DNA of 32,000 nt. Origin: a bacterium (GTDB lineage: Bacteria > UBP7 > UBA6624 > JBBIMK01). Both the position numbers and the translations under genes were made by a program. The stretch spans positions 60,001-92,000 of the forward strand of contig JBBIMK010000005.1 in the NCBI GenBank assembly GCA_037444445.1, in the 5' to 3' direction. Positions 9,914 to 32,000 of this stretch are shown here, one piece after another; the first letter of the stretch is position 1, and each line of letters starts with the position of its first letter. A model generated the notes under the pieces. The model saw only the letters and a program-made list of their open reading frames with translations. It was not told where the DNA came from and ran no database searches.

Positions 9914-9927
9914 TGCAAAATTTTGCA
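9914..9927. promoter_or_regulatory. perfect 14-bp palindrome TGCAAAATTTTGCA (candidate operator)
   Basis: Read directly from the sequence. It extends to an 18/20 palindrome, CCTTGCAAAATTTTGCAGGG. It sits about 90 bp upstream of the nnr start, inside a 440-bp noncoding gap. Confidence 0.3.
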
Positions 9928-14115: not shown

Positions 14116-14231
14116 TTCTCTATTATTCTAACATAAAGGAAGAGGTGTATGACGCAGATGCCCAACTTTGAAGTGCTGGGATTTCGCTTCCCATCGTTCA
14201 GCCTGATAAAATTAGATAGAGTTAAACCCGT

Positions 14232-15428
14232 ATGACACTTCCGTGGGTATTTATTTTTATACCATTTGTTGGGACCCTGGCGGGGTCGGTTGTGAAAACG
14301 GCGGTGGCGTTCCAATCTCGCTCTCTTGGCGGTTTAGGGTGGCAGGTGGGCGCTCTCACTTCCGGATTTATGCTGGCTCGTGCCCTTTCTTCGCCTCTCT
14401 TCGGGTATCTCATGGACCGGCTCACCGGAGATTCGTCCCGGAGAACTTTTTTCCAGCGTCTTTTTATCCTTGCCGGTCTACTTCTTTTCGCTCTGACTTC
14501 TATCTTTTTCCTTCTCACTCCTTTCATCTGGATGCTCATCCTTCTGCGCACACTCCAGGGAGTGTGTGCGGGGGTGCTCTGGCCCACGATGCAAACCTAT
14601 GTGGCGGAAAGTGCCGATGCTCAATCATCGGCGAAGTGGCTGGCCGTCTATTTCATTTCTGGAGAGCTGGGTTTGTCGCTTGGCTATCTCCTCTACGGCT
14701 CTTTTTTTACAGGCTCGTTTTCGGGAGCTATGGGGGCGGGAATTTTTTTCTTCCTGCTCACCGCCTGGAGCACGCGGTATCTTCCTTCTCCGCGTCCAGC
14801 AACGAAGGCTGGCATTTCACCTGCCCTTGCGAACTCCCATTTCTACACTTCTGCCTGGCTATACCTGACTACTTTCAGCGCAGGACTGGGAGTGGGGCTT
14901 ACTGGAGAACTTCTCCTTATTTACCTGAAAGAGGTTCAAGCATTTACCGTTTCGGAGACCACTTATCTTCTTTTTATAGCAGGTGTGGTGGGGCAGGGCG
15001 TCAGCCTTTATCTATCCCATCTGGCAGGTCAAGGGAATTTAGAAGCGGGATTGCATCGCAGTCTTCTGCTGACGGCCTCTGGTGCTTTCCTCCTTTCTTT
15101 TCGCGGAGGTTTTTATACCACCTTTCCCGCTCTACTTTTCCTTTTCAGCGGACTATACAGTTTTTCCCCAATTTCAAGGGCTTACGCAAGCCTACGGTCC
15201 TATAATCCTGCCACGGTGATTGGTTTCCTGAACACGGCTGGCAACCTCGGAGGATTCCTCTCTCCACTCCTCGGGGGGTATCTCTATGAGATTTTTCTTC
15301 ACAAATCGGCGGGTGTTTTTTCTCCTTCTGCTGCACCCTATTTGCTCCTCGCTATCCCTCTTTTAACCCTGGGAGTGCTTCGCCCTTCCGTCTGTATTCA
15401 AAATCAGGAAAATAGAAATCACCCGTGA
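14232..15428 (+). CDS. MFS-type transporter
   Basis: About 11-12 hydrophobic helices are present. An MFS loop 2-3 motif-like segment reads LFGYLMDRLTGDSSRR. The 14243-15205 ORF in another frame is a shadow of this gene. Confidence 0.8.
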   Translation: MTLPWVFIFIPFVGTLAGSVVKTAVAFQSRSLGGLGWQVGALTSGFMLARALSSPLFGYLMDRLTGDSSRRTFFQRLFILAGLLLFALTSIFFLLTPFIWMLILLRTLQGVCAGVLWPTMQTYVAESADAQSSAKWLAVYFISGELGLSLGYLLYGSFFTGSFSGAMGAGIFFFLLTAWSTRYLPSPRPATKAGISPALANSHFYTSAWLYLTTFSAGLGVGLTGELLLIYLKEVQAFTVSETTYLLFIAGVVGQGVSLYLSHLAGQGNLEAGLHRSLLLTASGAFLLSFRGGFYTTFPALLFLFSGLYSFSPISRAYASLRSYNPATVIGFLNTAGNLGGFLSPLLGGYLYEIFLHKSAGVFSPSAAPYLLLAIPLLTLGVLRPSVCIQNQENRNHP

Positions 15429-16084
15429 GAGAAATTCGGGAAATTCTCATCCTCTGGATTTTGACGATGGTTCGGGTCTGGATTCCTTATCTTCATTATA
15501 ACCATCTCGCCGGTGCTGTATGGGTTATGGCTTCGCTGTTTTATCTCCTCTCTGTGCAATATGCCCGGTGGAAGTCAATAAAAGCCCTTCCTGCGACAGA
15601 ATCCTCACTGGCGAAAGAAGGTGGTATTCGCTGGGATACTTTTTTCCCCTGCCTTCGTGTTGTATCGCCATTTCTTGTTGTTTTTATATTCCTGATTGTT
15701 GTAATTTATATCTCGGAGGGGCAACCGACACTTTGCCGAAATCTACCTCTCCGCTATCTCCTCTATTTCCTGTGGGCTTTATTTCAGCAATACCTTTTGC
15801 AGGGTTTCATCGTGGTGCGACTGCGATCCTTCGGGAAAAGTCGGGTGTGGACAGCATTCCTAACGGGGTTGATTTTCGCCAGTGTTCACCTACCCAATCC
15901 AGGCCTCACGGTGGCGACCTTCATCGGTGGATGGATTTTATCCTATGCGTTTTTAATTTACCCCAATCTTTTTTCTGTTGCCATAGCCCATAGCCTGATT
16001 GCTGTGAGTATGAAATGCTTTCTACCGAAGACCATTCTTGCCAACATGTATGTGGGGATTTATTACCTCTATCCGCCCCCTTAA
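15425..16084 (+). CDS. CPBP (CAAX/Abi)-family intramembrane protease homologue with substituted catalytic motifs
   Basis: The protein is polytopic with a CPBP-like motif order. Motif 1 reads FQQYLLQGF (canonical EExxxR in EELLFRG). Motif 2 reads FASVH (FxxxH retained). Motif 3 reads AHSLIAV (HxxxN/D with the N/D lost). The GTG start overlaps the MFS stop (GTGA). Confidence 0.65.
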   Translation: MREIREILILWILTMVRVWIPYLHYNHLAGAVWVMASLFYLLSVQYARWKSIKALPATESSLAKEGGIRWDTFFPCLRVVSPFLVVFIFLIVVIYISEGQPTLCRNLPLRYLLYFLWALFQQYLLQGFIVVRLRSFGKSRVWTAFLTGLIFASVHLPNPGLTVATFIGGWILSYAFLIYPNLFSVAIAHSLIAVSMKCFLPKTILANMYVGIYYLYPPP

Positions 16085-17683: not shown

Positions 17684-19399
17684 ATGAAAGGATGGGTAAG
17701 GGTGGGGATGAGTGTGGGAATTTTGCCGATGTGTCTCGTGGCTGGCGCAAAATCTTTCGGGCAGGATGTGGCGCCCCTTAGAGCGACAAGTTTGATGGAA
17801 GAAGCCCTGAGTATGACGGAGAAAATAGAGAATCCCCGGGATAAAGCCTTTGCCCTTCGTCATATCGCCGGTCAAGCGGCAAAAATAGATAAAGCCCTCG
17901 CACTTTCCATATTTGAACGAGCGGCATCGGAGGCGGAGAAAATTGAAGATGCCAGCCAGAGAATCTCAGCTTACCAGGAAATCGTTCTGGACCTGTCGGA
18001 GATGGATATGGACCGGGCTATTGCAATAGTTCAGAAAATTTCAGATGAAACAATGCAGTCCTTTGTCATCCGCGACATCACTCAGCCCCTCACTGAAAGG
18101 GATGTGGAAGAAGCTATGGCGGTGGTGGAGAAGACTCCAGACCCCGGTCCCAAAATCTCTGCTTTGATTTCCATAGCCCAGAAACTGGCGAAGAAGGACC
18201 CGGCGCGTGCTCTAACCCTGGTAGAGAAAATCCGGGACCCCAATCCCAGGTCTATAGCGCTATATGAGATTGTTTCTGAACTTTCTCAAACCCACATTCG
18301 CCTTGCTCTCACGGTGGCGGATTCAATTCCTGACCCTTTTTTCAAAGCAAGTGCCCTCAAAATCATTTCTGCAGAGCAGGCGAAAACCGATGTGGAAGTT
18401 GCGAAGAAAATGGCTGAGGAGATTCCCGAGCCTTATGAAAAAGCAGATGCTTTGAGTCGCATCGGCATAGAGGTCGCAAGGACTGACACGAAGGGCGCCC
18501 TCACCTTTTTTCAGCTCGCCCTGCAAGAGGGGGAAAAAATTTCTGACCCTACCCGAAAGGTTCACCTTCTCCTACCCATAGCCAGAGAGATGGTGAATTG
18601 GGACTCGGCTCGTGCTCTGGACATATTTGACCGTGCCATTCAATCTGCAAAGAGAATCTATGATGAGGGAATGAAGGATAGAAACCTGCAGGAAATCGCT
18701 ATTGCCCTTGCGAGCATAGATTTTGACCGAGCTTTCAAAGTGGCGAATGAAATCTCCAATACCTGGATCCGGGCGGAGACCATTCGTATTCTCATCGTTG
18801 AAATAGCCAAAAAAGATGTCCCCGGCGCCCTGCAAAGGGTAGAAAGTATTGAGGATTCAGACTTTAGAGCCTCCGCCCTGTTGAGTCTCGCCACAGAAGT
18901 GGCAAAAAAGGATATGGGGCTCGCCCTGCAGATTGCAGAGAAAATCGGTTTACCCTTCTGGCTTGCCCGGGCTTATGGGAACATCTCCGTAGAAGTGGCG
19001 CGCTACAATCTTCCTGCGGCTCTGGGTATCGTGCAAAAAATCACCACCACTAACGACAGGGATAAAGCCTATCATCATATCGCTGAACTCCTGGCAAAAA
19101 CGGATATAGAACAGGCTATAAATTTAACGGAAAGAATTCAGGATAACGAGCGGAAGGGCGAAGCCTTGCATACCCTCGCCCTGGGACTGGCAGAAAGGGA
19201 TTTCCAGCGAGCCCTGGGGCTGGTGGAAAAGATGACACCCGACTCCGATGAGAAGCGAAAAGCCTTGCTGGACATCGCATCGGAATTAAGGGGGAAGGAC
19301 CTGAAGCAAAGGGAAAAGTTGCTGGAGCAAGCGGCAGAAATCGCCCGTCAGCGGCAGGATGCCATCGCCCTGGCTGAAGTGGCTGTGTTTTTCCTGTAG
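17684..19399 (+). CDS. exported alpha-helical repeat (alpha-solenoid-like) protein, about 15 tandem 32-residue units
   Basis: A signal-peptide-like N-terminus is present (GMSVGILPMCLVAGA). The recurring unit is roughly (E/Q)KIxDPxxKxxALxxIAxExAKxDxxxALxxx. Anchors fall at residues 46, 85, 117, 149, 181, 213, 245, 284, 323, 355, 387, 419, 451, 483 and 515, giving a period of 32 and occasionally 39. Confidence 0.8.
   Translation: MKGWVRVGMSVGILPMCLVAGAKSFGQDVAPLRATSLMEEALSMTEKIENPRDKAFALRHIAGQAAKIDKALALSIFERAASEAEKIEDASQRISAYQEIVLDLSEMDMDRAIAIVQKISDETMQSFVIRDITQPLTERDVEEAMAVVEKTPDPGPKISALISIAQKLAKKDPARALTLVEKIRDPNPRSIALYEIVSELSQTHIRLALTVADSIPDPFFKASALKIISAEQAKTDVEVAKKMAEEIPEPYEKADALSRIGIEVARTDTKGALTFFQLALQEGEKISDPTRKVHLLLPIAREMVNWDSARALDIFDRAIQSAKRIYDEGMKDRNLQEIAIALASIDFDRAFKVANEISNTWIRAETIRILIVEIAKKDVPGALQRVESIEDSDFRASALLSLATEVAKKDMGLALQIAEKIGLPFWLARAYGNISVEVARYNLPAALGIVQKITTTNDRDKAYHHIAELLAKTDIEQAINLTERIQDNERKGEALHTLALGLAERDFQRALGLVEKMTPDSDEKRKALLDIASELRGKDLKQREKLLEQAAEIARQRQDAIALAEVAVFFL
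17816..19333 (+). repeat. in-frame coding repeat array, about 96-nt period (32 aa)
   Basis: The periodicity was read from the translated protein. The repeats are degenerate at nucleotide level. Confidence 0.7.
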
Positions 19400-19414: not shown

Positions 19415-21391
19415 TTACAAATCCAGTCCCGCGCCCTTTTCGGAAGGCAATTGATTGCTACCTGGCTGGATCCAGAGGATATTATCCCGTGCGAAAGGTT
19501 TCGGGTAAGAATCTTCCCCGCCGCCGGTATCTAAAAAGATGCCAATCGTAGGCATAAAATCCCGAATTAGCCCTACCGGGCCACCCACGCTGGATTTACC
19601 GAGAGTTAAATCTGCGGACACACGGTAAATATCCTTCCCGCTTTTATCCCAGAATAAGCCCATACCGTTAGCATTACCGGCGCCGAGGCTGAGATTGGGG
19701 GCATCATAAACATCATCACCCGCCTCGTCTATCAGGAAACCCACGGTGAAATCGTGCCCGGCGCCTTGAGCCATATTATGGGTGGCGGAATAATGGTCGT
19801 TTCCTCCACCCTCCCAGAGGATGCCAACGCCGAAGTGGGCTCCTGCGCCCTGAACATACCAAACACCTTTATACTCATCATTCCCCGCTTTATCTGCGAG
19901 GATGCCCACGCCATACCAGTACGCCTGCCCCTGGCCGAAGACGCCGCAAGAGTAATGGTCATTTCCATCGCCATCCACGAGAATACCCACACCGCCTGCG
20001 AGGGAATGCCCATCCGTGAAATCTGCCCGCTTCCCCATTCCCATCCCTTGCACAAGACTGCTGTTGTGTTCCTTCGTCTGGGCAGCAGGAAATTTGATGT
20101 CCGAATCGTTGCCCGTGTAAATATCGTCTCCGGCTACATCCACCAGGAGCCCGCTACCGAGAACCCAACCATATCCCTGACCCTGCTGGTAGAGGGCATA
20201 CGAGTCATTTCCCTGCAGGTCCGATAGGACGCCCACACCGAAGAACCCTGCCCCCTGCCCGCCCGCAAAAGCATCGTAGGAATCATCACCGGCTCTATCC
20301 ATCAGGATGCCCGCGCCAAAGAATCCAGCGCCCTGCGTCAAAGACTTGCTCCTGTAAGTATCATTCCCCTGAAGGTCAACCAGATAAGCCCAGCCGAGAA
20401 TGCCGGCGCCGAAGGAAGGAACCTTCGCATCCTCCGAGATATAGGTGTCATTCCCCTGAAGGTCAATCAGGATAGAGATGGGGTTGGCGGGGGAAGAGGA
20501 TGCGCCCGTGGTGTAGGTGTCATTTCCACCCACATCCACAAGGATGAACGGGTTCTTTTCCGAATAGGAATCATCTCCTGCCCCCCGGATGGAAATGGCG
20601 CCCACAGGGGTGGAAGCATGGAAAGAAAATTTCTTATCCGTGTGGAATGAAGAAAGAGATTTCACCACTTCATCCAGGGTGAGAGCGAGGTCAATACCGC
20701 CGGTATTCAGATACAGAAAATCCACCTGGTCGGCGAAAGATTCTACTCGCCGAATGACCTCCTCCTGCACCTGTTCCGAATCAATCCCCACCACATAGGA
20801 AATCGCATCGCCAAAAACTTTCTCCACATCCTTCACTGCGACTTTCTGAAAAGCCAGGTCCCTCCAGGAGAGAACCTCAGCAGAGGTCACAACGAGCAAT
20901 GCCACCTCCTTCGCTACTTCGGGTGGCACCTCCGAAGCGGTTTTTTGAAGCCGCTGGTATTCATTTTTCGGTAATTTTTTTCCGTTTTTCTCATAGAGGA
21001 ATTGAATGGCGTTGGGGAGGACGTCCGTTTCTTTCAGTTTTTTCCGGTAGCCTTCCACAGGGTTGAAAATCAGGCTACGGCGGACAGAAGTTTTCACTTT
21101 TGCCGCCGTGCGCATCAACAGATTCCCTATAGATTCCGAGTTCTTCAGGGTGTCCTCCGCAAAATAAGGCACATAATTTGGAATTTTCAGGGGGCTATCT
21201 ATGAAGACATCAAAGAAATGAAGACGATACTTATCCCCGCCGAAAAAATTCATATCCAGCCGGTCAAACTTCAGCGTCTCTTTCGTGTATCCGATGATGG
21301 GTAAAACCTTCTCCCACGGGTCTTCTTCAGCCACTCCCGAAATCAGCATCATTGCGAGGAGAATACCTGAGAAATTCAGATATTTTTTCAT
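19415..21391 (-). CDS. exported protein with an N-terminal unknown domain and a C-terminal 13-fold G(N/D)DxY repeat (beta-solenoid-like)
   Basis: I chose the ATG at 21391 (MKKYLNFSGILLAMMLISGVA, signal-peptide-like), which is preceded by GGAGGG. The repeat motifs are GDDSY, GNDTY x3, GDDSY, GNDSY, GDDIY, GNDHY, GNDEY, GNDHY, GDDVY, GKDIY and GEDSY. They are spaced about 26-27 residues apart and embedded in QGxGxxGxGxLxDxxG(N/D)DxY. Confidence 0.8.
   Translation of the reverse strand: MKKYLNFSGILLAMMLISGVAEEDPWEKVLPIIGYTKETLKFDRLDMNFFGGDKYRLHFFDVFIDSPLKIPNYVPYFAEDTLKNSESIGNLLMRTAAKVKTSVRRSLIFNPVEGYRKKLKETDVLPNAIQFLYEKNGKKLPKNEYQRLQKTASEVPPEVAKEVALLVVTSAEVLSWRDLAFQKVAVKDVEKVFGDAISYVVGIDSEQVQEEVIRRVESFADQVDFLYLNTGGIDLALTLDEVVKSLSSFHTDKKFSFHASTPVGAISIRGAGDDSYSEKNPFILVDVGGNDTYTTGASSSPANPISILIDLQGNDTYISEDAKVPSFGAGILGWAYLVDLQGNDTYRSKSLTQGAGFFGAGILMDRAGDDSYDAFAGGQGAGFFGVGVLSDLQGNDSYALYQQGQGYGWVLGSGLLVDVAGDDIYTGNDSDIKFPAAQTKEHNSSLVQGMGMGKRADFTDGHSLAGGVGILVDGDGNDHYSCGVFGQGQAYWYGVGILADKAGNDEYKGVWYVQGAGAHFGVGILWEGGGNDHYSATHNMAQGAGHDFTVGFLIDEAGDDVYDAPNLSLGAGNANGMGLFWDKSGKDIYRVSADLTLGKSSVGGPVGLIRDFMPTIGIFLDTGGGEDSYPKPFARDNILWIQPGSNQLPSEKGAGLDL
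19505..20599 (-). repeat. in-frame coding repeat array, about 80-nt period (26-27 aa), glycine-rich
   Basis: The motif tyrosines fall at residues 304, 321, 345, 374, 400, 426, 453, 508, 535, 562, 590, 617 and 657 of the 686-aa ORF-track translation. Confidence 0.7.
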
Positions 21392-21413
21392 CTTTTCCGC
21401 CCTCCTTCTCCCA

Positions 21414-21422
21414 ATCATATCA
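21414..21422 (-). promoter_or_regulatory. extended -10 promoter element TGATATGAT
   Basis: On the minus strand a TGn-TATGAT element lies about 22 nt upstream of the ATG at 21391, followed by GAAGGAGGG as RBS. Confidence 0.35.
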
Positions 21423-21554
21423 CAAGCGGGAAGAAAAATTTTTATCCCATTTCTCTGGCAGGAACAGGGTGTCAACGAGCCCTGGACTCAAAAGGGAGGG
21501 AAGTGCGGAGTCAAGGCTGTCTGTGGGGGGAATCCATTTGAATTTGTGACAGGA

Positions 21555-21622: not shown

Positions 21623-22309
21623 TTACGGTAGTTCCGGGGGGCTTATGCTTTCCTCAGGCTGGGATTCTTTCGGAATTCCGGGTTCTCCAGTTCCGGGACC
21701 TCTCTTCCAATCATCCCGGTTCAGGACGCTGTCGCCATTCCGGTCCAGACGCTCAAAAAGGGTGTTTATACCCGTCTGAAATTCCTCCTTGCTCAAAGCC
21801 CCATCCTTGTTTGTATCCAACCGCGCCATGCGGGAGAAAACAGGAGGAAGGTTGTCTTGCCGCTTTTTCATTCCAGCGATGAATTCTTCTCCGGTAATGG
21901 CGCCATCGTGGTTTGCATCCAGCCTCTGGAATAACTCCTCGCGTCCGGGAAACTCATCCCTGACAATTTTTCCATCGCCATTGGCATCCAGTTTCTTCAG
22001 GTGCTCCAGGATTTTATCCTGCACTTCACCCAGGAAAGCGTTTCGTGCCTTCTGCGCCTCTTCCCTGGTGATGACACCATTTCCGTCAGAGTCCACCTTC
22101 TGGAAAAGGGTCATCCAGCCCGAAGTGAACTCCTCCCGGGAGATGGAACCATCTTTATTGGCATCAAATTTTTGCCACGCCATTCTCCCCGTATGCTTTA
22201 CCGCTTCCTTTTTGAAATGTTCCCTTTTCACCGACCTTCCTTCCGGCTTACCCGCGAGCAGGAAGGGAACCACCAGCACCGCCGTAACTATCAGAATTAT
22301 TTTTTTCAT
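21623..22309 (-). CDS. exported six-EF-hand calcium-binding protein
   Basis: I chose the ATG at 22309 (MKKIILIVTAVLVVPFLLAG), preceded by GGAGGTG. There are six canonical 12-residue loops: DANKDGSISREE, DSDGNGVITREE, DANGDGKIVRDE, DANHDGAITGEE, DTNKDGALSKEE and DRNGDSVLNRDD. Confidence 0.85.
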   Translation of the reverse strand: MKKIILIVTAVLVVPFLLAGKPEGRSVKREHFKKEAVKHTGRMAWQKFDANKDGSISREEFTSGWMTLFQKVDSDGNGVITREEAQKARNAFLGEVQDKILEHLKKLDANGDGKIVRDEFPGREELFQRLDANHDGAITGEEFIAGMKKRQDNLPPVFSRMARLDTNKDGALSKEEFQTGINTLFERLDRNGDSVLNRDDWKRGPGTGEPGIPKESQPEESISPPELP

Positions 22310-22544
22310 TCTTCCATTCACCTCCACTTTCCTATAAACAAGGAAAGGTTCTAAAAGTTTCATCCTGTTTTCAGAGAGGGATGAGTGGGGAATGTCAGAA
22401 GAAAATCTACCGGGAAATCATGCGGGAGGGCTGTGACATCGGGAAATGTTTCTTTTCCTTAAGGGGAGCCCCCACCGATTTTTCAACAGGAACGATGATT
22501 TGTATCACCTGGTCAGGATCTATTGACTCAAAAAGTGTAGACTT

Positions 22545-22589: not shown

Positions 22590-22665
22590 CGGGATGTGGC
22601 TCAGCCTGGCTTAGAGCGCCTGGTTCGGGACCAGGAGGTCGCGGGTTCAAGTCCCGCCGTCCCGA
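22590..22665 (+). tRNA. tRNA-Pro (anticodon CGG)
   Basis: I folded the cloverleaf by hand. The acceptor stem is CGGGATG/CGTCCCG, the D stem GCTC/GAGC, and the anticodon stem CCTGG/CCAGG with loop TTCGGGA. The T arm is GCGGG-TTCAAGT-CCCGC and the discriminator is A. No CCA is encoded. Confidence 0.9.
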
Positions 22666-22690: not shown

Positions 22691-23554
22691 ATGAAAAGGT
22701 GGATTTTTACAGGTATAATTTTGTTGACCGGGATTCCCTTATTTTCCCAGGAACCGGAGGAGTTGCTCCGCTCCTCTATTCGGATAAAACTGCCCACAGA
22801 AACCCCTGAACTTCCTGAAATTCAGGTGAATCGGCGTCTATTTCAGAAAGAAATGATTCTAAAGCAATTTTTAGGCGAGGTCCCCCCGAAAATAGAAGAA
22901 GGAAGTATTGAGGTCTACACGGGGAAAAATGGGCAAGAGGTGGATTTCTACCCCACCCAGGTTTTTTCCTTTTTACAGCCAATTCAACCTGAAGAAGAGA
23001 AAAAAACGATGAACGAGGCAGAAGCCCGAAAGGCGGTGAATGATTTCCTGGAGAGATTTGGGGGCTTGCCGGCAGAGGCTTATCTGTTAGAGAGTAAAGC
23101 CCTGCGGGGTGAAGGTGGAGCAGGGAATCTCTATTATTACATTTACGCTCACAACTATCATAATGTGGCTGTGGAAACAGATGTGATACGCCTTACAGCA
23201 GGGGCAGGCCGTGTGGTGGAATTCGTCTTCGGATGGAGCACACCCGTGAAAGAATTTCCTTCAGTAAAAATCATTCCTGCTGAGGTGGGGCTGAAGAATG
23301 CCCTGAAATACCTGTATGTGGATATTCTGAAAAATAAATACTATGCCACGGCAGAAGTGACGGATGTGAAGTTATACTACTACAATAAGAGCCAGAAAGA
23401 GATAGAGCGGCTGGTGCCGGTGTGGCGGTTTACGATGGTGCTGACGGGTCAGTCACTTCTCCAGCCGGGTCAAACGCAATTCAGGGAGCCAGAAGCCATC
23501 GGCTATTCCATTCAGGTGCGAATCAACGCCATCACGGGGGACCCGATCCGATGA
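22691..23554 (+). CDS. secreted hypothetical protein
   Basis: A signal-peptide-like N-terminus is present (MKRWIFTGIILLTGIPLFSQE), with a GGAAGGGAG RBS upstream. I recognise no catalytic motif. Two segments (EAEARKAVNDFLERFGG..., PAEVGLKNALKYLY...) are loosely reminiscent of PepSY/YycI-like modules. Confidence 0.65.
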   Translation: MKRWIFTGIILLTGIPLFSQEPEELLRSSIRIKLPTETPELPEIQVNRRLFQKEMILKQFLGEVPPKIEEGSIEVYTGKNGQEVDFYPTQVFSFLQPIQPEEEKKTMNEAEARKAVNDFLERFGGLPAEAYLLESKALRGEGGAGNLYYYIYAHNYHNVAVETDVIRLTAGAGRVVEFVFGWSTPVKEFPSVKIIPAEVGLKNALKYLYVDILKNKYYATAEVTDVKLYYYNKSQKEIERLVPVWRFTMVLTGQSLLQPGQTQFREPEAIGYSIQVRINAITGDPIR

Positions 23555-23636
23555 ATTCCACTGTAGTGAGGATGTTTAAGAGGAACCTGAGGGGAAGGGT
23601 TTCCATCCAGGGGTATTCAAAGGGAGCATCAGCGGG

Positions 23637-24569
23637 ATGAAGCGATATTCTCCACGGCCCACCCTCACGCTGATGGTTATGACAGAAAAGAGAGAGCCTC
23701 GTTTTTTCCGCCTCTCTTCCATAGTGGTTCGGTGGAGTCTGCTGGCGAGTGGAGTGCTACTGCTGGGGCTAACCCTCTGGATAGCCCGATACTTTTATCT
23801 GGAGAGTGAGGTTCGTAAACTCGCCGGTGTGAAGCAGATGCAGGAGCAGTTTGACACACTGAAGCAGGACCTGTTGGATGAAATGAAGAAATTCCATGCC
23901 CTTCAGGAGAAGGTTAGAAAACTGGAGGACCGGTTGAAGAGCAAGTCCTACGCACCACCACGAGAAGACACAGAAATGCAGGCTTTTCCGGTCCTTGAAG
24001 AGTCTACATTCTCACCTGATGGAATGGAGGATGCTCTGCAGGCATACAAACTTCTAACCTCACGCCGTGAAAAACTGGAAAGTCAATATGTTGCTCTGAA
24101 CGAAGAAGTATCTCGGCGTCTCTCCCTTCTGGAATATATGCCCTCCATTCCTCCCACCTCTACCCTGTCCATTTCCTCCGGCTTCGGGTATAGGCGGAAT
24201 CCCCTGAGTGGCAGGAAGGATTTCCATCCGGGGCTGGACATTCGGGGGGACCCTTCGGATGTGGTTCGTGCTACTGCTTCGGGCACTGTGATTTTTGCGG
24301 GCTGGAAGGGGGGATATGGACGAACCGTAATCATTGACCATGGAAATGGATTTGTTACCTGGTTTGCCCATAACTACAGTTTGACGGTTCGGAGCGGGGA
24401 ACGAGTCAAAAAGGGGCAGGTAATTGCTCGCATCGGCAGCTCTGGCTACACGACAGGACCCCACCTGCACTACGAGGTTCATTACCGGGATAAAATCATA
24501 GACCCTCGCATTGTTCTAAATGTAAATGTGTTTACAGTAGAATCAATCCTGAGCAGGGTCCGGAGGTGA
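23637..24569 (+). CDS. LytM/M23-family metalloendopeptidase with N-terminal TM helix and coiled coil
   Basis: The TM helix is WSLLASGVLLLGLTLWI. A coiled-coil stretch follows (QFDTLKQDLLDEMKKFHALQEKVRKLEDRL). The catalytic motifs HPGLD (HxxxD) and GPHLHYEVH (HxH) are intact. Confidence 0.9.
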   Translation: MKRYSPRPTLTLMVMTEKREPRFFRLSSIVVRWSLLASGVLLLGLTLWIARYFYLESEVRKLAGVKQMQEQFDTLKQDLLDEMKKFHALQEKVRKLEDRLKSKSYAPPREDTEMQAFPVLEESTFSPDGMEDALQAYKLLTSRREKLESQYVALNEEVSRRLSLLEYMPSIPPTSTLSISSGFGYRRNPLSGRKDFHPGLDIRGDPSDVVRATASGTVIFAGWKGGYGRTVIIDHGNGFVTWFAHNYSLTVRSGERVKKGQVIARIGSSGYTTGPHLHYEVHYRDKIIDPRIVLNVNVFTVESILSRVRR

Positions 24570-24576
24570 GGAAAAG

Positions 24577-24969
24577 GTGTTTGGAAAGCGAGAGGCAAAA
24601 GAGGATAAAATCACGACCATCCTGGGGGGGAATAGTTCCTTTGAGGGGACGCTGAGCGACCTTCATTCCTTGCGAGTGGATGGCCGTTTCAACGGTGACA
24701 TTTCCACGGAAGGAGAAATCTTTGTAGGAAAAATGGGATATGTCAAAGGGAACCTCACGGGGAAAAGCGTGTATGTGTATGGACGGGTTCATGGGAATTT
24801 GCAAGCCAAGGAGCGTATAGAAATTATAGAAGGCGGAGTGGTGGAAGGAGATTTACATACAAAACGCCTGGTTATTTATGAGGGCGCCGTGTTTAAGGGA
24901 CACAGTTATATGGAGGAGATGGTGGTTCAACCGATGGCCGAGGGTGCGCGGAGTGCGATGGTTTCTTGA
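24577..24969 (+). CDS. bactofilin (polymer-forming cytoskeletal protein)
   Basis: SSFEGTLSDLHSLRVDGRFNGDISTEGEIFVGKMGYVKGNLTGKSVYVYGRVHGNLQAKERIEIIEGGVVEGDLHTKRLVIYEGAVFKG is the typical bactofilin beta-helical repeat pattern. The GTG start lies 10 nt after GGAGG. Confidence 0.9.
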   Translation: MFGKREAKEDKITTILGGNSSFEGTLSDLHSLRVDGRFNGDISTEGEIFVGKMGYVKGNLTGKSVYVYGRVHGNLQAKERIEIIEGGVVEGDLHTKRLVIYEGAVFKGHSYMEEMVVQPMAEGARSAMVS

Positions 24970-25331
24970 ACCTCCTCCGAGCATGGGTAGTGGTTCTGGG
25001 TGGAACCTTTCTGACATGGCGCTGGTTAAAAGAGGGAATGCATGGGCAACAGGAAACAGCGTGGATGATTGGGTGGGCAATCGGGATAGGTATTCTCGCT
25101 GGTGTGGGGCTTTTGTGGTATTGCAAAACGGCATCCAGGGCGCTTTTCCGTAAACTATTTCTTTTTCTTCTCGGATTTACCATACTATGGGTGATTTTTC
25201 TGGCTACGGGCGCACCCTCTTCCCCCGCCCATAACTTCCTGTTTGAAGTGCTGGAAATGGTCTGGGTGGCCGTGATAGTCCTGCCCATTCTCTGGCAGAG
25301 GAGGGAAAATGGAAATCCTACTGGCACCTGA
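24966..25331 (+). CDS. small polytopic membrane protein (3-4 TM), function unknown
   Basis: Hydrophobic helices include AWMIGWAIGIGILAGVGLLWY, LFLFLLGFTILWVIFLATGA and FEVLEMVWVAVIVLPILW. The start is uncertain. The TTG at 24966 overlaps the bactofilin stop, and an in-frame ATG at 25038 is the alternative. Confidence 0.5.
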   Translation: MNLLRAWVVVLGGTFLTWRWLKEGMHGQQETAWMIGWAIGIGILAGVGLLWYCKTASRALFRKLFLFLLGFTILWVIFLATGAPSSPAHNFLFEVLEMVWVAVIVLPILWQRRENGNPTGT

Positions 25332-26472
25332 CTCGTTTAAGGGCACCCTGTGGGCCTGGGAAGTCAGCCAGGTTGTGGAAGAGGGATTGAGAGATAGCGG
25401 GCTTGACTGCCGCGTGGAGAAACTGCCCATCGCTGACGGAGGAGAAGGAACGGCGGAAGTGCTGAGAAGGGCGTGGGGAGGAATACGGATGACCTCTCAA
25501 GTCAAAGGCCCTCTATACGAGAGAGTGGAAGCATCGTGGGGTCTGAGCCCGGATAGAAAAACGGCCGTCCTGGATATGGCTTCCGCTTCCGGGCTCACTC
25601 TCGTTCCACTGGAACGCAGAAATCCCCTGCTCACGACCACTTATGGAACTGGAGAATTGATTCGGAATGCAATTCAATCGGGAGTGGAAGAGATTTTAGT
25701 GGGAATAGGAGGGAGTGCCACCGTAGATGGGGGTTTGGGCGCTCTCCGGGCACTGGGAGTAAAACTCTACGATGAACAGCGAAATCTTCTGGAGGGGCGA
25801 GGGCAGGACCTGCTTCGTCTCTCCGCGGTGGATGCGGAGGAAGCGGAAGCCATCGTGAGTTCCACCCGGATTGTGGCCATGGTGGATGTCCGGAACCCAC
25901 TGTGCGGCCCGGAAGGGGCGGCTCGGGTCTACGGTCCCCAAAAAGGAGCCTCTCCTGAGGTGGTTGCCCTGCTGGAAGAGGGTCTGGAGAAGTGGGCAGA
26001 ACGGATAGAAGTGGAGCGAGGGATAAGCGTGAAGAACCTGCCCGGAGCGGGTGCGGCCGGTGGATTGCCTGCCGCTCTCGTTGCCTATCTCAATGCAGAA
26101 ATCTGCGCCGGTGCTCCTTTCGTCTTGAAGCGTCTCCAGTTTGATGAAAAAGTAACCGGGAAGGACCTTCTGATTACGGGTGAAGGAATGGTGGATTCTA
26201 AAACTCTGTATGGAAAAGCACCCTACGAAGCCCTCCGAAGGGCAAAACAAAAGGGCATTCCGGTGGTTCTGCTGGCCGGTTCTCTGGGACCAGGCGCAGA
26301 GGAAGTCTACCGGCATGGTGCGGACCTAATCCTCGCTTCGTTCTATGGCAAAACGCCCTTCCAGGGGACCGAACAAGAAGCCCGAGAAAATCTCTACTTT
26401 CTGTCTTACTCTCTGGGTAAGTCATTCGTTCTGGGAAGGAGGCTTCCATCTTATGCCCAGGCCTCTTCGTAA
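25309..26472 (+). CDS. glycerate kinase
   Basis: MEILLAPDSFKGTL...LPIADGGEGT...GIGGSATVDGG...LITGEG is collinear with the GlxK/GarK family. A GGAGGG RBS lies upstream. Confidence 0.9.
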   Translation: MEILLAPDSFKGTLWAWEVSQVVEEGLRDSGLDCRVEKLPIADGGEGTAEVLRRAWGGIRMTSQVKGPLYERVEASWGLSPDRKTAVLDMASASGLTLVPLERRNPLLTTTYGTGELIRNAIQSGVEEILVGIGGSATVDGGLGALRALGVKLYDEQRNLLEGRGQDLLRLSAVDAEEAEAIVSSTRIVAMVDVRNPLCGPEGAARVYGPQKGASPEVVALLEEGLEKWAERIEVERGISVKNLPGAGAAGGLPAALVAYLNAEICAGAPFVLKRLQFDEKVTGKDLLITGEGMVDSKTLYGKAPYEALRRAKQKGIPVVLLAGSLGPGAEEVYRHGADLILASFYGKTPFQGTEQEARENLYFLSYSLGKSFVLGRRLPSYAQASS

Positions 26473-29413
26473 AACTTTCTTCAGCAATCTGGATGCACTG
26501 AAGGAAATCCTGGGTAAGGAAAGCCCTTTAAGTCTCAAGGAAATTATCTCCCGGATCCAGAAAAAATATCTGCTGGATGAAAGTCAGGAGGTGATTAAGA
26601 GTGATTTCGTTCTCCCCGTGCTGAAGAAGCAGGATTACTTTACCTGTGTAGAAGATGAAACAGAAGATGGAAAATGGTCTCTGGAGTATAAAAAACTTCC
26701 GGAGCATCAATGCGCCCTAAAAATCCTTCGTGCAGAAGGAAAGGTCATTCCGTCCAGGGTCTTGAGAGAAAGAATTGCTGAAAGTCTTCGCCTGCCGTTG
26801 AAGCGAGTTTTTTTCTTTCCTGAAAAAGACCCGGAGACATTCAAGAAATTTTCCTTCCCGCTGAAGGTGGAAGAGGGAGAGTGCTGGGTTCCCAGGGACT
26901 GGCGGCTCATCAACGACGAAGCGGTGGAGATTCTGAGAAGGGAAAAGACCCCGCTGAATACCCGGGAAATAGAGGAAAAGGTGCGTGCCCACTATAAACT
27001 GGCTGAGCCGGTTCTCATCTTTGAACCCCGATGGGATGACCGATTTGAGGCGCACAAGAGAAAATGGGTTCTTCGGGAAGAGCGAGAGGAGGTGATAGAG
27101 AAAAAGGCTACTTCCTGGGTTGTGGAAGTCACCCTGAAAGAAAAGGTCATTCAGGCGCTGGAGGAAATTCTTGAGAAAATGAAGCACCGCTCTCAGCCTT
27201 TCTCCCTCAATGATTTAACTCAGTCTTTACTCGGGAAAGAAGCCCAGGGTGTGAAAGATACCCTGTATTTTTCACTTCTGAGAGAATGCCTTCAAGCGAA
27301 AGAAGCCCGGGGCGAACTGGTCCGGGTCAGAGGGCATCGGGAAACCTTCTCGCTTCGTGCTGCCTGGCGGTTGTCGGAAGACATTCCTTCCGCCGTGTTT
27401 ACCCTGCCGATACGAGAGGAGCCTTTTGAGCCGAAACCTTTTGAAATCTTGAGCGATAGGGGTTTGGACCCCGAAATGGTTGCTATCCTAAAAAACCCAT
27501 ACGATTATTTTTACGACGGCGATTATGAGGAGCACCAATTCCCTCCCTCCGGTTTCTGCATCTTCATCACTTATCATGAAATGCTCACGGGAATCGTTGC
27601 TCTTTCAGCCCCTGGAAAAGCCTTTCTAAAAAAGGAATTGGGCTTATTCTTTGAGGGTTCTTCGGGGGAGAGACCCCACTCACCCGAAACCGGTCCCGTG
27701 GCAGAACTGGAGGTGCGTATTCCCGACGGGACAAACCTCAACATTTTTATCCACCTGGGCACGGGGTTGGTCTTCGGCCTGGAAGATTTTATCAGCCGTT
27801 ACTCCGAGCCCGGGGCCTGCTATCGCGTGGAAGTCACAGGCCCTTACCAGTTATCTCTGACACCGGAAGTTACACCCAGTCTATCCGAAATCTCCATCAT
27901 CACTGGAGAAGAAATTGAGCGGCTGGATGAAATGATTCCACGACTACCGGAACTTTCTTTATTCCAGGTGATGGTGGAGATTCTGTCCCAGTACAAAGAG
28001 GGTTTGACCGTGATGGACCTGTACCATCGGGTGCAGTATCTACGGCGAACCAGCCGACGCCACCTTTTCAGCCTCCTGTGCCAGCACTATGCTTTCCAGA
28101 AGAAGGACCAGAAATGGAAAATTATGCCTGAACGAGTTGCCTGGGAGAAGAGGAAATCCCTTCTGGTTCATGCCCGGGAATTTCTCGCCAGCCAGTCTTT
28201 TTCCTTTTCCTTCGCGGGTCCGAAAATCCCACTTCGGGAAAAAGAAGATGGGTGGACGCTTACGCTGAGAGGAATCAAAATCCTGCCCCGACCCCGGGAT
28301 TACATCCTCCTGTTTTCCCGACATGATGAGGCTTATGTGGGAAGTTTCTTTGCTTCCTCCGTTCATCGCATCAACGACGCAGAAGTCATCATAGAGACCC
28401 CTGCGCTGGAGTTGTGGGAAGTGAAAGTCCCCCTGGAGAAGGGCTGGAAAGTGGGATTGGAACGAACTTCTCTGTATCCTCTCCGCACCACCATGCTTTC
28501 AAAACTGCTGGAAACTTTTGACCGTCTTTCCTATGCTTACTGGGTGAAGAAAACCCTGACACGTTCCTTTCGTTTCGTGGAGATGACCCCGGCGCTCACG
28601 CAGAAATCTAAAGATGAAATCCAGGAATTGAAAGGGTATCTGGAAGAGGAACAAAGCCCGTTTCTTGCCCTGAAAGGGATTTCCTGGCAACTTCAGATGA
28701 CGCCAACTTATGAGGAGTTTAACAAAATTCTGGAGGAAAAACATTATTCTCGTGGAGAACGAACCCGTCTGAAACCCTGGGAAATGCAAGAGGCTGTATT
28801 GAGTCTTGAACTTTCTTTCCCTCAGCGTCTTCTCTTCTTCCCTCTGGGGGAGGGAGAGTGGGCCCTGTCCATTCTGGAGGACTTTAAAAAGCAACTGATA
28901 GAAGGGGGCTACGGTGTAGAGGAAGAGGGAGTGAAATTCTTCCTGTCAGGGCAGGAAGAGATTCTGCCCTGGGAAAAGATAGTCTCGGACCGGCGGAGAG
29001 TGGAAAAAATTCGCATGCGAGAAGACGACTTGAATACGGATGAAGCGTTGAATGCTTTACTGGAGCGATATACTCTGGGGGTGGAACCTCGCCGTTCCCT
29101 TTTCCTGATTGCCAGCCTAAGCCTCCGATTCAAGGGCTTCGGCAGCCTTCCGTTGATGAACAAACGGGTGGAAGATTTCCTGCGGGATTCTCCCGGGCCG
29201 GATGAACTGGAAAGGAATGGCTTTGACCGCATAATCGGCGACCTGCGCAATCTATCGCATAAAGAGGTTCGGAATATCCTCACAGGCATACCTTCCTTTC
29301 TTCGTGCCGGTGGGCTTGCGTCCTTCTTCATCCACACAGATGTTAAAGGGCTGGCGGTGGATTCTGAAAAGGTTTTATCCGACGCCGTGAAACTGGTCTT
29401 CCTCCGACGATGA
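26453..29413 (+). CDS. 986-aa orphan protein with several HARE-HTH-like winged-helix modules, function unknown
   Basis: I chose the ATG at 26453, which lies 10 nt after GGAAGGAGG. It overlaps the glycerate kinase end by 20 nt. I see no Walker A or other catalytic motif. A recurring module is described in the findings. Confidence 0.8.
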   Translation: MPRPLRKTFFSNLDALKEILGKESPLSLKEIISRIQKKYLLDESQEVIKSDFVLPVLKKQDYFTCVEDETEDGKWSLEYKKLPEHQCALKILRAEGKVIPSRVLRERIAESLRLPLKRVFFFPEKDPETFKKFSFPLKVEEGECWVPRDWRLINDEAVEILRREKTPLNTREIEEKVRAHYKLAEPVLIFEPRWDDRFEAHKRKWVLREEREEVIEKKATSWVVEVTLKEKVIQALEEILEKMKHRSQPFSLNDLTQSLLGKEAQGVKDTLYFSLLRECLQAKEARGELVRVRGHRETFSLRAAWRLSEDIPSAVFTLPIREEPFEPKPFEILSDRGLDPEMVAILKNPYDYFYDGDYEEHQFPPSGFCIFITYHEMLTGIVALSAPGKAFLKKELGLFFEGSSGERPHSPETGPVAELEVRIPDGTNLNIFIHLGTGLVFGLEDFISRYSEPGACYRVEVTGPYQLSLTPEVTPSLSEISIITGEEIERLDEMIPRLPELSLFQVMVEILSQYKEGLTVMDLYHRVQYLRRTSRRHLFSLLCQHYAFQKKDQKWKIMPERVAWEKRKSLLVHAREFLASQSFSFSFAGPKIPLREKEDGWTLTLRGIKILPRPRDYILLFSRHDEAYVGSFFASSVHRINDAEVIIETPALELWEVKVPLEKGWKVGLERTSLYPLRTTMLSKLLETFDRLSYAYWVKKTLTRSFRFVEMTPALTQKSKDEIQELKGYLEEEQSPFLALKGISWQLQMTPTYEEFNKILEEKHYSRGERTRLKPWEMQEAVLSLELSFPQRLLFFPLGEGEWALSILEDFKKQLIEGGYGVEEEGVKFFLSGQEEILPWEKIVSDRRRVEKIRMREDDLNTDEALNALLERYTLGVEPRRSLFLIASLSLRFKGFGSLPLMNKRVEDFLRDSPGPDELERNGFDRIIGDLRNLSHKEVRNILTGIPSFLRAGGLASFFIHTDVKGLAVDSEKVLSDAVKLVFLRR

Positions 29414-32000
29414 ATCTCTCCCTTTTTCTGATTGTGCTTCTTCTTCTGGTGGCTGTGGGAGTAGGCGGCTTCTGGGCTCATCGCAGGCAAATTCGTCGTT
29501 TGAAGTCTTACTTCCGTTCCAGCCTTTTGAACCTGCAAGAAGGGAAGCCCATCCCGGAAGAGCCTCTCCTGAAAGAGATTCAACCCACCCTGCTCCAATT
29601 ATTCCAGCAAAGCCAGGAACTGGCACAAAACCAACAGAATTTGGAAAGAAAGAACGCTCATCTCCAGGCAAACCAGTTATTTCTGAGGACTCTCCTGGAA
29701 CTCATGAACTGGCAGGGTCCCAGAGCTGAACTTCAGGAGACCCTTGTGCACCTTCTGCTGGATGTTCTTCAAGTGGAGCAAGTGCTGTTCTTTGACTATG
29801 TTCCAAGTATAAAAGGTTTTCATTTTGCATGCCAGGCGGGAAAACCTGGCGTCGTGCCACCTTCTCTTCAATTAAGCCCGGATGAACATCCCTTCTTCCT
29901 GCGGAGAATTTTTACATCCCGAGCCTCCATCGCGCTTCAGCCAGATGACCCTGAAGCGGGTTTCCTTTTATCAGCAGTGAAAACAAATCGGGGGTTCTTG
30001 AGCCTGCTCCGACGGGAAGGCTCCCTCTACGGGCTCCTGCTCATCACTATTACCGCAGAGGATTCTGCTACCCTTCAGAAAATCCAGGAAATGTTTGACG
30101 ACTATACGAAAATCATTACACTCCTGCTGGAAAATCATGCAGTGCGGGAGGAAAGTCAGAGGCATATTAAGGACCTGGAACTGGTTCATCAGATTAATCT
30201 GCAAATCAGTTCCATTCTGGAATTTTCGAATATCCTCACAACCTCAGTTGAACAGGTAGCCCGGGCTCTGGAATCCGATGTGGCTATGATTGAATTAGTG
30301 GAAAACGATGAAATCCATCTCAGGGCTTCTTCAGGAATTTCCCTGGAAGAAGTGAAAGGGATGTCTCGGATGAAAATCGGCGAGAGTTTGTCGGGATGGG
30401 TAGCGGCGGCAGGAACTCCCCTGGCGGTAGAGAACATTGAACTGGACCCCCGGTTCAAATTCAAAGGACAAGCCCGGGCCCTGGGCCTCACTTCCTACTG
30501 TGGTGTGCCGCTGATTATTACGGGAAAACTGATTGGTGTTCTTTCCGTTCTAAACCGGCAACCCCGAATCTATTCGCCCCGAGAAATTGACCTTCTAAAT
30601 ACCATCGCTGGCTCCCTGGGTGTGTTCTTAGAGCAGGCGACTCTCTACCAGCAGCTGCAGGATAAACTCCAGGAATTGGAAAGCGTTCACCAACAACTGA
30701 AAGCCCATGATAAAGAAATCCTTCATCTCAACCAGCAGTTGCAAGCCCTCCAACAATTCCAGCAGGAACTGGTCCACTCTCTCCCCCGGGCACTACTCAA
30801 TCCCTTAACTATCATCAAAGGAACCGCTTCCATCTTCCAGACTGGCTTACAACAGACAGAGAAAGAGAAGGAGATTTTTTTCACCTTTCTGAATACACAG
30901 GTAGATGCTATGGTGGATTTCCTATCTCAACTCTCCGACTTTCTTCTGATTCAATCCGGTCAATTTGCTTTGTATCCAGAAACCCAATCATTAAAGGCTT
31001 TTCTTGAAACTCTTTTCGTGCCGTATCACGCTCTGGGGCAGGCAAAATTTAACACTTTTCAAACGCAAATCTTCGCAGAAGGAGAACAAGCGGTATTTGA
31101 CCCTCGGCGTCTTCGTCTTATCTTCCGAGGCGTCCTTGGAAGAGCGTTTAGTAAGTCTAAAACTGGTGACACCATCTTTTTGCAAGCCCGCGCTGGACCC
31201 CTGGAAAAACTTCCATTCTCGCCACCCGTAAAACTATCTCCGGGAGAGTATTTATGGGTTACACTTCAGATGATTTCCGCAGAAGGGGTTCACAGAAAAC
31301 CCTCGGAAGTGTTTGACACTCTAACGAAAGAGATTGAACCCATTCCCGGCAAGCCGGAAGCATTCGCCCGGGGATTTGAGGATTTCTTGACGCGGTATTT
31401 CATCTCTGCTCATGGTGGAACCTTATGGGTGGAAGATGGAAAGATAGATGAACCGAAAATCCATTTCACTGTTTCCATTTCCCCTACCCCTTATATCACG
31501 ACTGCGGAGAAAGGGTTGGTTCCTTACACCCGCCCACTCGGTATCCGTTCCATCCTCCTTTTCCAGAAAGGATGGGATATTCAGCCCTGGCTGACCCTTC
31601 TCCAGAAGCATGTTCCATCCATTCTACGGGCAGAAAATTCTATGGAAGCACAAGAGATTTTAAAAAAAGAGGAGCCCGATTGCTTGTTTGTTCCCGCAGC
31701 TATTTCGGGCGATATACTTCATCTCCAGGAGGAAATCGTAAAGGGGAGTGGAGTTTCACAGAGTGTGCCCTGTGTCGTGGCTCCCCGGGACCCTCCCACG
31801 ACTCCCGCTTCTACCCCACTCTATCTCCTCGTCTTGCATACTCTACGGGATAGATTTCATCCGCAGCCCGCACACTGGGAAATCGTGTATATAGATACGC
31901 TGGAGGCTCTGCGGAAGGCGACACAAATGGAGATGAAATATCATTCTATATGCCTGTTTGATTTTCCTCTGTTGACGGAAGTATATGAAACACTGGTGAA
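29410..32000 (+). CDS. membrane-anchored double-GAF protein with degenerate histidine-kinase and receiver-like domains (3' end outside the window)
   Basis: This ORF is not in the supplied track because it has no stop within the window. I translated frame 1 from the ATG at 29410, which overlaps the upstream TGA (ATGA), through base 32000 without meeting a stop. The order is MNLSLFLIVLLLLVAVGVGGFW (TM), a coiled coil, two GAF-like regions (the second contains GESLSGWVAAAGTPLAVENIELDPRF...SYCGVPLIITGKLIGVLSV), another coiled coil, then the DHp-like VHSLPRALLNPLTIIKG. Confidence 0.8.
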   Translation, partial: MNLSLFLIVLLLLVAVGVGGFWAHRRQIRRLKSYFRSSLLNLQEGKPIPEEPLLKEIQPTLLQLFQQSQELAQNQQNLERKNAHLQANQLFLRTLLELMNWQGPRAELQETLVHLLLDVLQVEQVLFFDYVPSIKGFHFACQAGKPGVVPPSLQLSPDEHPFFLRRIFTSRASIALQPDDPEAGFLLSAVKTNRGFLSLLRREGSLYGLLLITITAEDSATLQKIQEMFDDYTKIITLLLENHAVREESQRHIKDLELVHQINLQISSILEFSNILTTSVEQVARALESDVAMIELVENDEIHLRASSGISLEEVKGMSRMKIGESLSGWVAAAGTPLAVENIELDPRFKFKGQARALGLTSYCGVPLIITGKLIGVLSVLNRQPRIYSPREIDLLNTIAGSLGVFLEQATLYQQLQDKLQELESVHQQLKAHDKEILHLNQQLQALQQFQQELVHSLPRALLNPLTIIKGTASIFQTGLQQTEKEKEIFFTFLNTQVDAMVDFLSQLSDFLLIQSGQFALYPETQSLKAFLETLFVPYHALGQAKFNTFQTQIFAEGEQAVFDPRRLRLIFRGVLGRAFSKSKTGDTIFLQARAGPLEKLPFSPPVKLSPGEYLWVTLQMISAEGVHRKPSEVFDTLTKEIEPIPGKPEAFARGFEDFLTRYFISAHGGTLWVEDGKIDEPKIHFTVSISPTPYITTAEKGLVPYTRPLGIRSILLFQKGWDIQPWLTLLQKHVPSILRAENSMEAQEILKKEEPDCLFVPAAISGDILHLQEEIVKGSGVSQSVPCVVAPRDPPTTPASTPLYLLVLHTLRDRFHPQPAHWEIVYIDTLEALRKATQMEMKYHSICLFDFPLLTEVYETLV

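Follow-up and report, generated by a model that had tools for sequence, protein, structure and literature searches.

Can a protein that is laid out as a sensor histidine kinase, and in which the residues that define such a kinase have gone, still be kept by selection, and what could it then be doing? This question is raised by the last gene of a 32,000-nucleotide stretch of bacterial DNA, referred to here as the window (positions 60,001 to 92,000, forward strand, of contig JBBIMK010000005.1 in GenBank assembly GCA_037444445.1; GTDB lineage Bacteria; UBP7; UBA6624; JBBIMK01). The open reading frame (ORF) lies on the forward strand at 29410..32000, where it is read in frame 1 from the ATG at 29410 for 863 codons and meets no stop before the window ends. 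The interpretation held here, with moderate confidence, is that it encodes a catalytically dead protein, maintained by selection, whose ancestor was a membrane-anchored sensor histidine kinase with GAF domains, and which would act as a GAF-sensing, non-phosphorylating scaffold.

From its N-terminus, the window protein is composed of a transmembrane helix, a coiled coil, a GAF-like domain, a GAF domain, a signalling helix, a DHp-like hairpin, a CA-like domain and a C-terminal alpha/beta domain. Its closest database proteins are P0001 (893 residues, 95-96% identity) and P0002 (894 residues, 82%), both of which align from residue 1, so that about 30 codons are missing from the window (863 of ~893); the full length, which the first-pass annotation had located beyond the window, can thus be put at about 893 residues. 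These three sequences constitute lineage W. Two further lineages are used for comparison: the active lineage A (P0003 and the fragment P0060) and lineage J, which comprises 'bacterium JZ-2024 1' (loci L084-L086) and P0087. The first-pass annotation had proposed, from the letters of the window, that the protein keeps its GAF domains while its kinase core and its receiver-like module lack catalytic residues, and alignment with the orthologues supports this central claim.

The degenerate kinase core

The most informative comparison is offered by P0003, a syntenic positional orthologue of 898 residues, which shares 33-35% identity with the window protein over 100% of the query, is recognised by Pfam (HisKA, E=1.2e-17; HATPase_c, E=2.4e-29) and carries canonical H, N, G1, F and G2 boxes. 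Position by position, the H-box SVTHELRTPLT of P0003 stands against SLPRALLNPLT in the window protein, the N-box RNLIDNALKF against RGVLGRAFSK, the G1 box DTGIGI against AEGVHR, the F-box FERFYQ against FDTLTK, and the G2 box GAGIGLYLTRH against ARGFEDFLTRY. A separate alignment to HK853 of T. maritima, made with phmmer (E=2.6e-4), falls in the same register, with His260 aligned to Arg460 and the Asn pair of the N-box aligned to Gly-Arg.

The degenerate H-box SLPRALLNPLT is part of a DHp-like helical hairpin (residues 455-520, 30772..30969, on the forward strand, as are all the features of this gene). Within it, the H-box-like stretch SLPRALLNPLTIIKG (30778-30822) is without a phospho-acceptor His: the acceptor position, equivalent to His457 of P0003 and His260 of HK853, is taken by Arg460, encoded by CGG at 30787..30789. 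The acceptor codon is also CGG (Arg) in P0001, CAG (Gln) in P0002 and CAC (His) in P0003. It had been suggested earlier that the H-box, deviant as it is, retains a His. The deviation stands; the residue in question, His456, which is part of a VHS motif shared with P0001, precedes the acceptor position by four residues and is replaced by Asn in P0002. The retained His was thus read in the wrong register, and the degeneracy of the protein goes further than first thought.

The hairpin is followed by a CA-like domain of Bergerat fold (residues 521-690, 30970..31479), delimited through alignment to P0003 and HK853 and through Foldseek. Its N-box equivalent, LIFRGVLGRAFSKSK (31117-31161), has Arg578 in place of Asn. 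The G1 equivalent AEGVHR (31270-31302) replaces DTGIGI and reads AxGxH instead of DxGxG, and the G2 equivalent ARGFED (31363-31437) replaces GAGIGL, with the loss of GxGxGL. The absence of the N-box Asn and of the G1 and G2 boxes had already been reported in the first-pass annotation; the alignments to P0003 and HK853 agree with it, and neither offers another register in which any of the H, N, G1 or G2 boxes would be rescued. The N-box Asn is the Mg2+ ligand of GHKL ATPases, their G1 Asp recognises the adenine, and the ATP lid is built from the G2 glycines. Since all of these are lost, ATP binding is very unlikely, and we infer that the window protein can neither autophosphorylate nor transfer phosphate.

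When the window protein is searched against Pfam, HATPase_c and Response_reg go unmatched even at E<=1 and HisKA is matched marginally (E=0.11); HATPase_c and Response_reg are absent from P0001 and P0002 as well. The CA fold is kept in the AlphaFold2 (AF2) model, with a predicted local distance difference test (pLDDT) score of 70-84, and the Foldseek neighbours of the model include HK853 (TM-score 0.70), DivL (PDB 4Q20, 0.72) and RetS (~0.6). As judged from alignment and predicted fold, the window protein belongs to the histidine-kinase superfamily both by descent and by fold. Its domains, from the transmembrane anchor to the C-terminal alpha/beta domain, follow one another and are predicted to fold as in P0003, its active orthologue. 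With the defining catalytic residues missing, it does not count as a functional representative of the HisKA kinase class or of the REC class. A canonical hybrid histidine kinase is encoded on the reverse strand of the same window (4074-6851), with an intact GAF-GAF-PAS-HisKA-HATPase_c-REC architecture (HATPase_c, E=1.6e-25; Response_reg, E=8e-25), and the degeneracy of the pseudokinase is therefore specific to its gene.

One may still ask whether the protein remains an enzyme, either as a kinase or phosphatase working through non-canonical residues, e.g. His456, or as a Ser/Thr kinase. In the window protein and P0001, His456 and the canonical site share a DHp helix and are about one turn apart, and the Asn at H+4 (RALLN) recalls the T/N found in the phosphatase motif. 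Moreover, subfamily II ethylene receptors, which are without histidine-kinase motifs, have been reported to show Ser/Thr kinase activity in vitro (PMC4972365). However, the substitution of His456 already occurs in an orthologue as close as 82% identity, the canonical position is itself variable, with Arg or Gln, and Ala stands where the phosphatase motif has E/D at H+1. Gone, too, are the residues by which all GHKL ATPases bind Mg-ATP, namely the N-box Asn, the G1 Asp and the G2 glycines. Residual enzymatic activity of any such kind is considered very unlikely.

Selection and loss history

If the core is dead, its evolution should tell whether it is also dispensable. The ratio of nonsynonymous to synonymous substitution rates (dN/dS) was estimated by the Nei-Gojobori method, and between the window and P0002, at dS of ~0.6, it was 0.06 in the DHp hairpin, 0.09 in the second GAF domain (GAF2), 0.12 in the CA-like domain, 0.16 in the first, GAF-like domain, 0.24 in the C-terminal domain and 0.31 in the transmembrane helix and coiled coil. 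The P0001/P0002 and window/P0001 pairs are concordant, and across pairs the values are 0.04-0.08 for DHp and 0.12-0.15 for CA. No segment of the protein is, in other words, under tighter constraint than the catalytically dead DHp. That the dead core evolves under purifying selection favours a functional pseudokinase over a pseudogene.

The opposite possibility is that the gene is a relic in decay, on its way to becoming a pseudogene and without function beyond perhaps that of its GAF domains. Between lineages, the DHp, CA and C-terminal segments are indeed the least conserved (16-26% identity, in comparison to 44-57% for GAF2), a pattern which is the reverse of the usual one for histidine kinases. 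Nevertheless, the ORF of about 2.7 kb is intact in every lineage, and dN/dS remains within 0.04-0.15 across DHp and CA at a dS of ~0.6. The position of the gene and its translational coupling are kept, and the CA fold is predicted with reasonable confidence. Decay is accordingly held to be extremely improbable.

The family to which the protein belongs is small, as exhaustive and indexed searches returned three lineages only. An exhaustive profile search across 1.84 billion representatives, the listing of which was swamped by giant multi-GAF kinases, gave P0001, P0003, P0060 (a fragment) and P0087 as the only true members. No relative of the pseudokinase was found in a scan of 185,579 GTDB species genomes, nor in scans of metagenome contigs for which the pseudokinase and the 986-residue protein encoded directly upstream were used as queries. 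Lineage J corresponds to the unclassified NCBI entry 'bacterium JZ-2024 1' (GCA_054402635.1), which is the sole named relative of the operon; a literature search returned no paper mentioning it. The J orthologue (L085, P0087) is degenerate too: its H-box reads SLVRDLRETFT, it is without N, G1 and G2 motifs, and it yields no HisKA or HATPase_c match.

How the two dead lineages relate to the active one was derived from the operon genes. In seven of the eight, W and A are nearest to each other, the exception being one short gene, and four-point tests rooted on E. coli GpsA and GarK gave the split (W,A | J,outgroup) for both genes. J displayed no rate acceleration in the comparison of GpsA and glycerate kinase. 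The active lineage A is nested between two dead ones and the regain of five motifs is implausible; catalysis was therefore probably lost twice independently, on the assumption of vertical descent. A single ancestral loss, to which the Arg found at the His position in both dead lineages might be ascribed, is made less likely by the four-point tests with their outgroup root and by the occurrence of both Arg and Gln within the window clade; furthermore, the shared Arg is easily convergent, because a change from His to Arg is a single transition. Two independent losses imply, in turn, that the conserved function does not need phosphotransfer.

Flanking domains and genomic context

The dead core is embedded in a protein which has the remaining parts of a sensor. 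A single N-terminal transmembrane anchor spans residues 3-23 (29416..29478; Kyte-Doolittle 2.4) and is followed by HRRQIRRLK. A Kyte-Doolittle scan of the window protein gave no second transmembrane candidate, save a hydrophobic strand of a GAF core, and the positive residues after the helix predict, by the positive-inside rule, that the remainder of the protein is cytoplasmic. A Q/L-rich helix, which is a putative coiled coil, is placed by AF2 and composition at residues ~45-98 (29542..29703), and a Q/L-rich signalling helix, placed in the same way at residues 411-454 (30640..30771), joins GAF2 to DHp; in the AF2 model these regions appear as long helices at residues ~45-98 and 390-477, both rich in Q and L. 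The transmembrane helix read in the first-pass annotation is thus borne out by hydropathy, and the Q-rich coiled coils have their counterpart in the long modelled helices. The AF2 model of the whole window protein, built on a four-sequence alignment, is poor (mean pLDDT 54), and GAF2 and the C-terminus are unmodelled in it.

Two GAF domains had been claimed, and only one can be affirmed without qualification. GAF2 (residues ~255-413, 30172..30648) is matched by Pfam within residues 273-408 (PF01590, residues 274-405, E=1.7e-17; PF13185, E=2.3e-15). It is the sole significant Pfam domain of the window protein and its best-conserved domain, with 57% identity between the window clade and the P0003 lineage. 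Domain 1 (residues ~90-247, 29677..30150) has a confident alpha/beta fold in AF2, with a GAF/PAS-like order of helices and strands (pLDDT 75-87), and its support as a GAF from sequence is sub-threshold. Pfam finds no GAF match for it in the window protein; in P0003 the same domain has a GAF_3 match below the cut-off (E=2.3e-4), and the family profile reaches cyanobacteriochrome GAF structures over the full length at a sub-threshold E of ~0.6. Domain 1 is best termed GAF-like. Derivation of domain 1 from GAF2 as a diverged copy was also considered, and hhalign of the two gave no signal.

The C-terminal domain was approached with profiles as well. Its last ~200 residues match no Pfam family. A profile of the family C-termini was aligned with hhalign to one built from 25 receiver domains, reversed or column-shuffled profiles serving as controls. 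The full C-terminus aligned to the receiver profile with a probability of 63% and a score of 33 over 116 columns, from beta1 to about alpha5, and the first half alone with a probability of 77%, while the controls scored 9-15. In an hmmsearch of the C-terminal profile against PDB sequences, the top matches were response regulators, RR468 included; these account for four of the nine matches, all of which are sub-threshold (E 0.09-1.4). A word-indexed search with the same profile gave no match at E<=1 and did not recover even the family itself, so that it is uninformative. AF2 modelled the C-terminal 204 residues as one compact alpha/beta domain (pLDDT 69; predicted TM-score 0.71), for which Foldseek found no significant neighbour in PDB, but rather generic Rossmann/flavodoxin-like folds with a few receivers among them.

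In the hhalign register, the receiver-like half (residues ~714-807, 31549..31830) has none of the phosphorylation residues: K/K (Q/K in the window) takes the place of D12/D13, Pro762 that of D57, Pro that of T87 and Tyr that of K109. The receiver-like segment proposed in the first-pass annotation therefore holds as regards its missing catalytic residues, and its homology to receivers is weak. The receiver Asp is also absent from P0003, where it is Phe, and from the JZ lineage; as it is missing both in an orthologue with an active kinase core and in a third lineage, the pseudo-receiver state is probably older than the death of the kinase. It is plausible, on the strength of these alignments, that the C-terminal domain is a receiver-derived, non-phosphorylatable module. 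The receiver-like half is followed by a beta-alpha-beta-alpha-beta-alpha extension with a conserved FDFP motif, which starts at 31831..32000 and is cut by the window end. It was here, near 31820, that a second receiver had been suspected, and this suspicion must be dropped: only ~90 residues are left, they align to the receiver profile with a probability of 0.3%, and they are not a repeat of the first half, which speaks against an internal duplication.

The gene directly upstream (26453..29413, forward strand) encodes the 986-residue protein, which is the putative partner of the pseudokinase. Its ATG at 26453 is preceded by a GGAGG ribosome-binding site, and its stop overlaps the start of the pseudokinase as ATGA, as noted previously. 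The overlap of start and stop is kept in two of the lineages, as ATGA in the window clade and GTGA in the P0003 lineage. In Pfam the 986-residue protein has no significant domain, only repeated sub-threshold HARE-HTH/Rok winged-helix matches within its first ~280 residues, and a profile search against PDB sequences returned nothing. The protein is confined to the same three lineages, in which it is always encoded directly upstream of the histidine kinase-like gene. Between the window and the P0003 lineage it is 46% identical, in comparison to 34-35% for the pseudokinase.

Both genes belong to a tightly packed order of nine genes which is common to all three lineages (the window and loci L001, L002, L003 and L085). 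The order is as follows: an unknown protein of 287 residues, an M23 peptidase, a bactofilin, an unknown protein of ~113-121 residues, glycerate kinase, the unknown protein of ~980 residues, the histidine kinase-like protein, PlsY and GpsA. In the window the conserved cluster occupies 22691-32000 (forward strand), starting just after tRNA-Pro(CGG) at 22590-22665, and its members include the M23 peptidase (23637-24569), the bactofilin (24577-24969) and glycerate kinase (25309-26472), all on the forward strand. M23 peptidase and bactofilin are a known morphogenetic pair (PMC10945521), and together with the PlsY and GpsA neighbours they hint at envelope growth or phospholipid supply as the context of the operon. 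The conserved operon holds neither a response regulator gene nor a second kinase gene in any lineage. In contig L002, from the active lineage, PlsY is called as a protein of 120 residues (9607-9969), 220 nucleotides past the kinase stop and with no overlap; the discrepancy may be genuine, or may stem from a fault of assembly or a frameshift.

The window contains several other features. Two convergent large ORFs, at 17684-19399 (forward, 571 residues) and 19415-21475 (reverse, 686 residues), have no Pfam match, and a gene for a protein of 661 residues in the syntenic contig L001 likewise has no Pfam match on record. At 21623-22363, on the reverse strand, lies the gene for a multi-EF-hand protein of 246 residues (EF-hand_1, E=1.7e-30, with faint Excalibur/dockerin-like similarity), which is kept beside the operon in L001. 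A stand-alone PilZ protein of 137 residues (1797-2210, forward strand; E=1.7e-15) is encoded between a DegT-family aminotransferase and serine hydroxymethyltransferase, and suggests c-di-GMP signalling in the source organism. The serine hydroxymethyltransferase (2212-3471) has a best identity of 63%, to mixed phyla, among GTDB representatives, which points to a deep, poorly sampled lineage. Finally, the AT skew of -0.29 at 14001-16000, over an MFS transporter (14232-15428) and an Rce1-like CAAX protease gene (15425-16084), probably derives from T-rich codons of membrane proteins.

Proposed role and known systems

What, then, might a maintained and non-catalytic sensor do? According to the scaffold model, the protein would be a membrane-tethered dimer held together by its coiled coil and DHp bundle. 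The conserved GAF domain would bind a cytoplasmic small molecule, and the signalling helix could relay the ligand state to a non-catalytic platform made of DHp, CA and pseudo-receiver. Output would then proceed through conformational change and protein-protein contact, not phosphotransfer, and the platform may regulate a bound partner, the prime candidate being the translationally coupled 986-residue protein. A bolder version of this model can also be formulated, in which the ancestral, essential job of the family never needed phosphotransfer, and the pseudokinase and the 986-residue protein make up an undescribed signalling complex, independent of phosphorylation, coupling a cytoplasmic metabolite to envelope or phospholipid biogenesis; it is put forward as a speculation, and a doubtful one.

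Several points weigh against the scaffold model. What it says of ATP binding, dimerisation, ligands and partners is inference throughout, and GAF2, the domain best supported by sequence, is poorly modelled in AF2. The proposed partner has no recognisable function, and in the JZ lineage its gene and the histidine kinase-like gene abut without overlap. Reading function from the operon amounts to guilt by association. The case for two losses presumes vertical inheritance and was rooted on two genes with one outgroup. As the family comprises ~6 sequences from three lineages, statistics on conservation have little to draw on, and the AF2 models are of middling quality (mean pLDDT 54 and 69).

The partner might also lie outside the operon. 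As a decoy or heterodimer partner, in the manner of RetS and GacS, or by sensing a response regulator in its phosphorylated state, in the manner of DivL and DivK~P, the protein could serve a two-component system encoded elsewhere. The constraint on DHp (dN/dS 0.04-0.08) is consistent with such a role, in view of the reuse by DivL of its DHp docking surface to bind DivK~P (PMC4211667). DivL and RetS are among the structural neighbours of the model, and the canonical GAF-GAF-PAS hybrid kinase (4074-6851, reverse strand), a conceivable partner, is located 22 kb upstream. On the other hand, the model resembles DivL and RetS no more closely than it does the ordinary kinase HK853, nothing ties the pseudokinase to the hybrid kinase, and the conserved operon offers, in any lineage, neither a response regulator nor a kinase gene; this alternative is judged rather unlikely.

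Whichever the partner, the window family is a new, rare, family-level example of a known phenomenon, that of pseudo-histidine kinases. To our knowledge, only a handful of bacterial cases have been studied, with DivL as the paradigm. The immediate impact of the present case is modest, as it concerns an uncharacterised protein of an uncultured lineage. However, the occurrence of active and dead orthologues in the same operon slot provides a natural experiment on what becomes of a kinase core after the loss of catalysis. For annotation, the gene should not be named a sensor histidine kinase, nor be counted as a two-component system.

Among the systems with which the window protein can be compared, DivL of Caulobacter crescentus is similarly membrane-anchored, with multiple sensor domains and a DHp-CA core without the acceptor His. 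It has no kinase or phosphatase activity, its dead core being reused for protein-protein signalling, and its structure (4Q20) is matched by the model (TM-score 0.72). DivL differs in having PAS instead of GAF sensors, Tyr in place of His and no C-terminal receiver-like domain. It keeps most CA motifs and weak ATP binding, whereas the window protein is without any ATP-binding motif. Moreover, the partner of DivL, DivK~P, is known, while no response-regulator partner is evident for the window protein, and the likeness carries no demonstrated sequence orthology.

CikA of Synechococcus elongatus resembles P0003 and, by descent, the window protein, as it combines GAF, HisKA/HATPase_c and an Asp-less receiver-like domain, and its pseudo-receiver works through protein-protein contact (PMC6378743). 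Its kinase core is, however, intact and active, and it has no transmembrane anchor and acts in the Kai context. The CikA pseudo-receiver is a clear (beta-alpha)5 domain, whereas the domain of the window protein is weakly receiver-like and bears an extra extension of ~90 residues.

More distant parallels are found in plants, where the subfamily II ethylene receptors (ETR2, EIN4 and ERS2) and the histidine kinase-related domain of phytochromes signal by docking of partners; structures of phytochromes A and B are among the top full-length Foldseek matches of the window protein model. These receptors are eukaryotic and have a Cu/ethylene-binding transmembrane domain or a bilin, and ETR2 and EIN4 keep a real receiver, so that no orthology is implied. 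HK853 of T. maritima (PDB 2C2A/3DGE) stands at the other end of the comparison: its DHp-CA core is homologous to that of the window protein in both fold and sequence, but its His260 and N-box Asn are each Arg in the window protein, from which its G1 and G2 boxes are absent.

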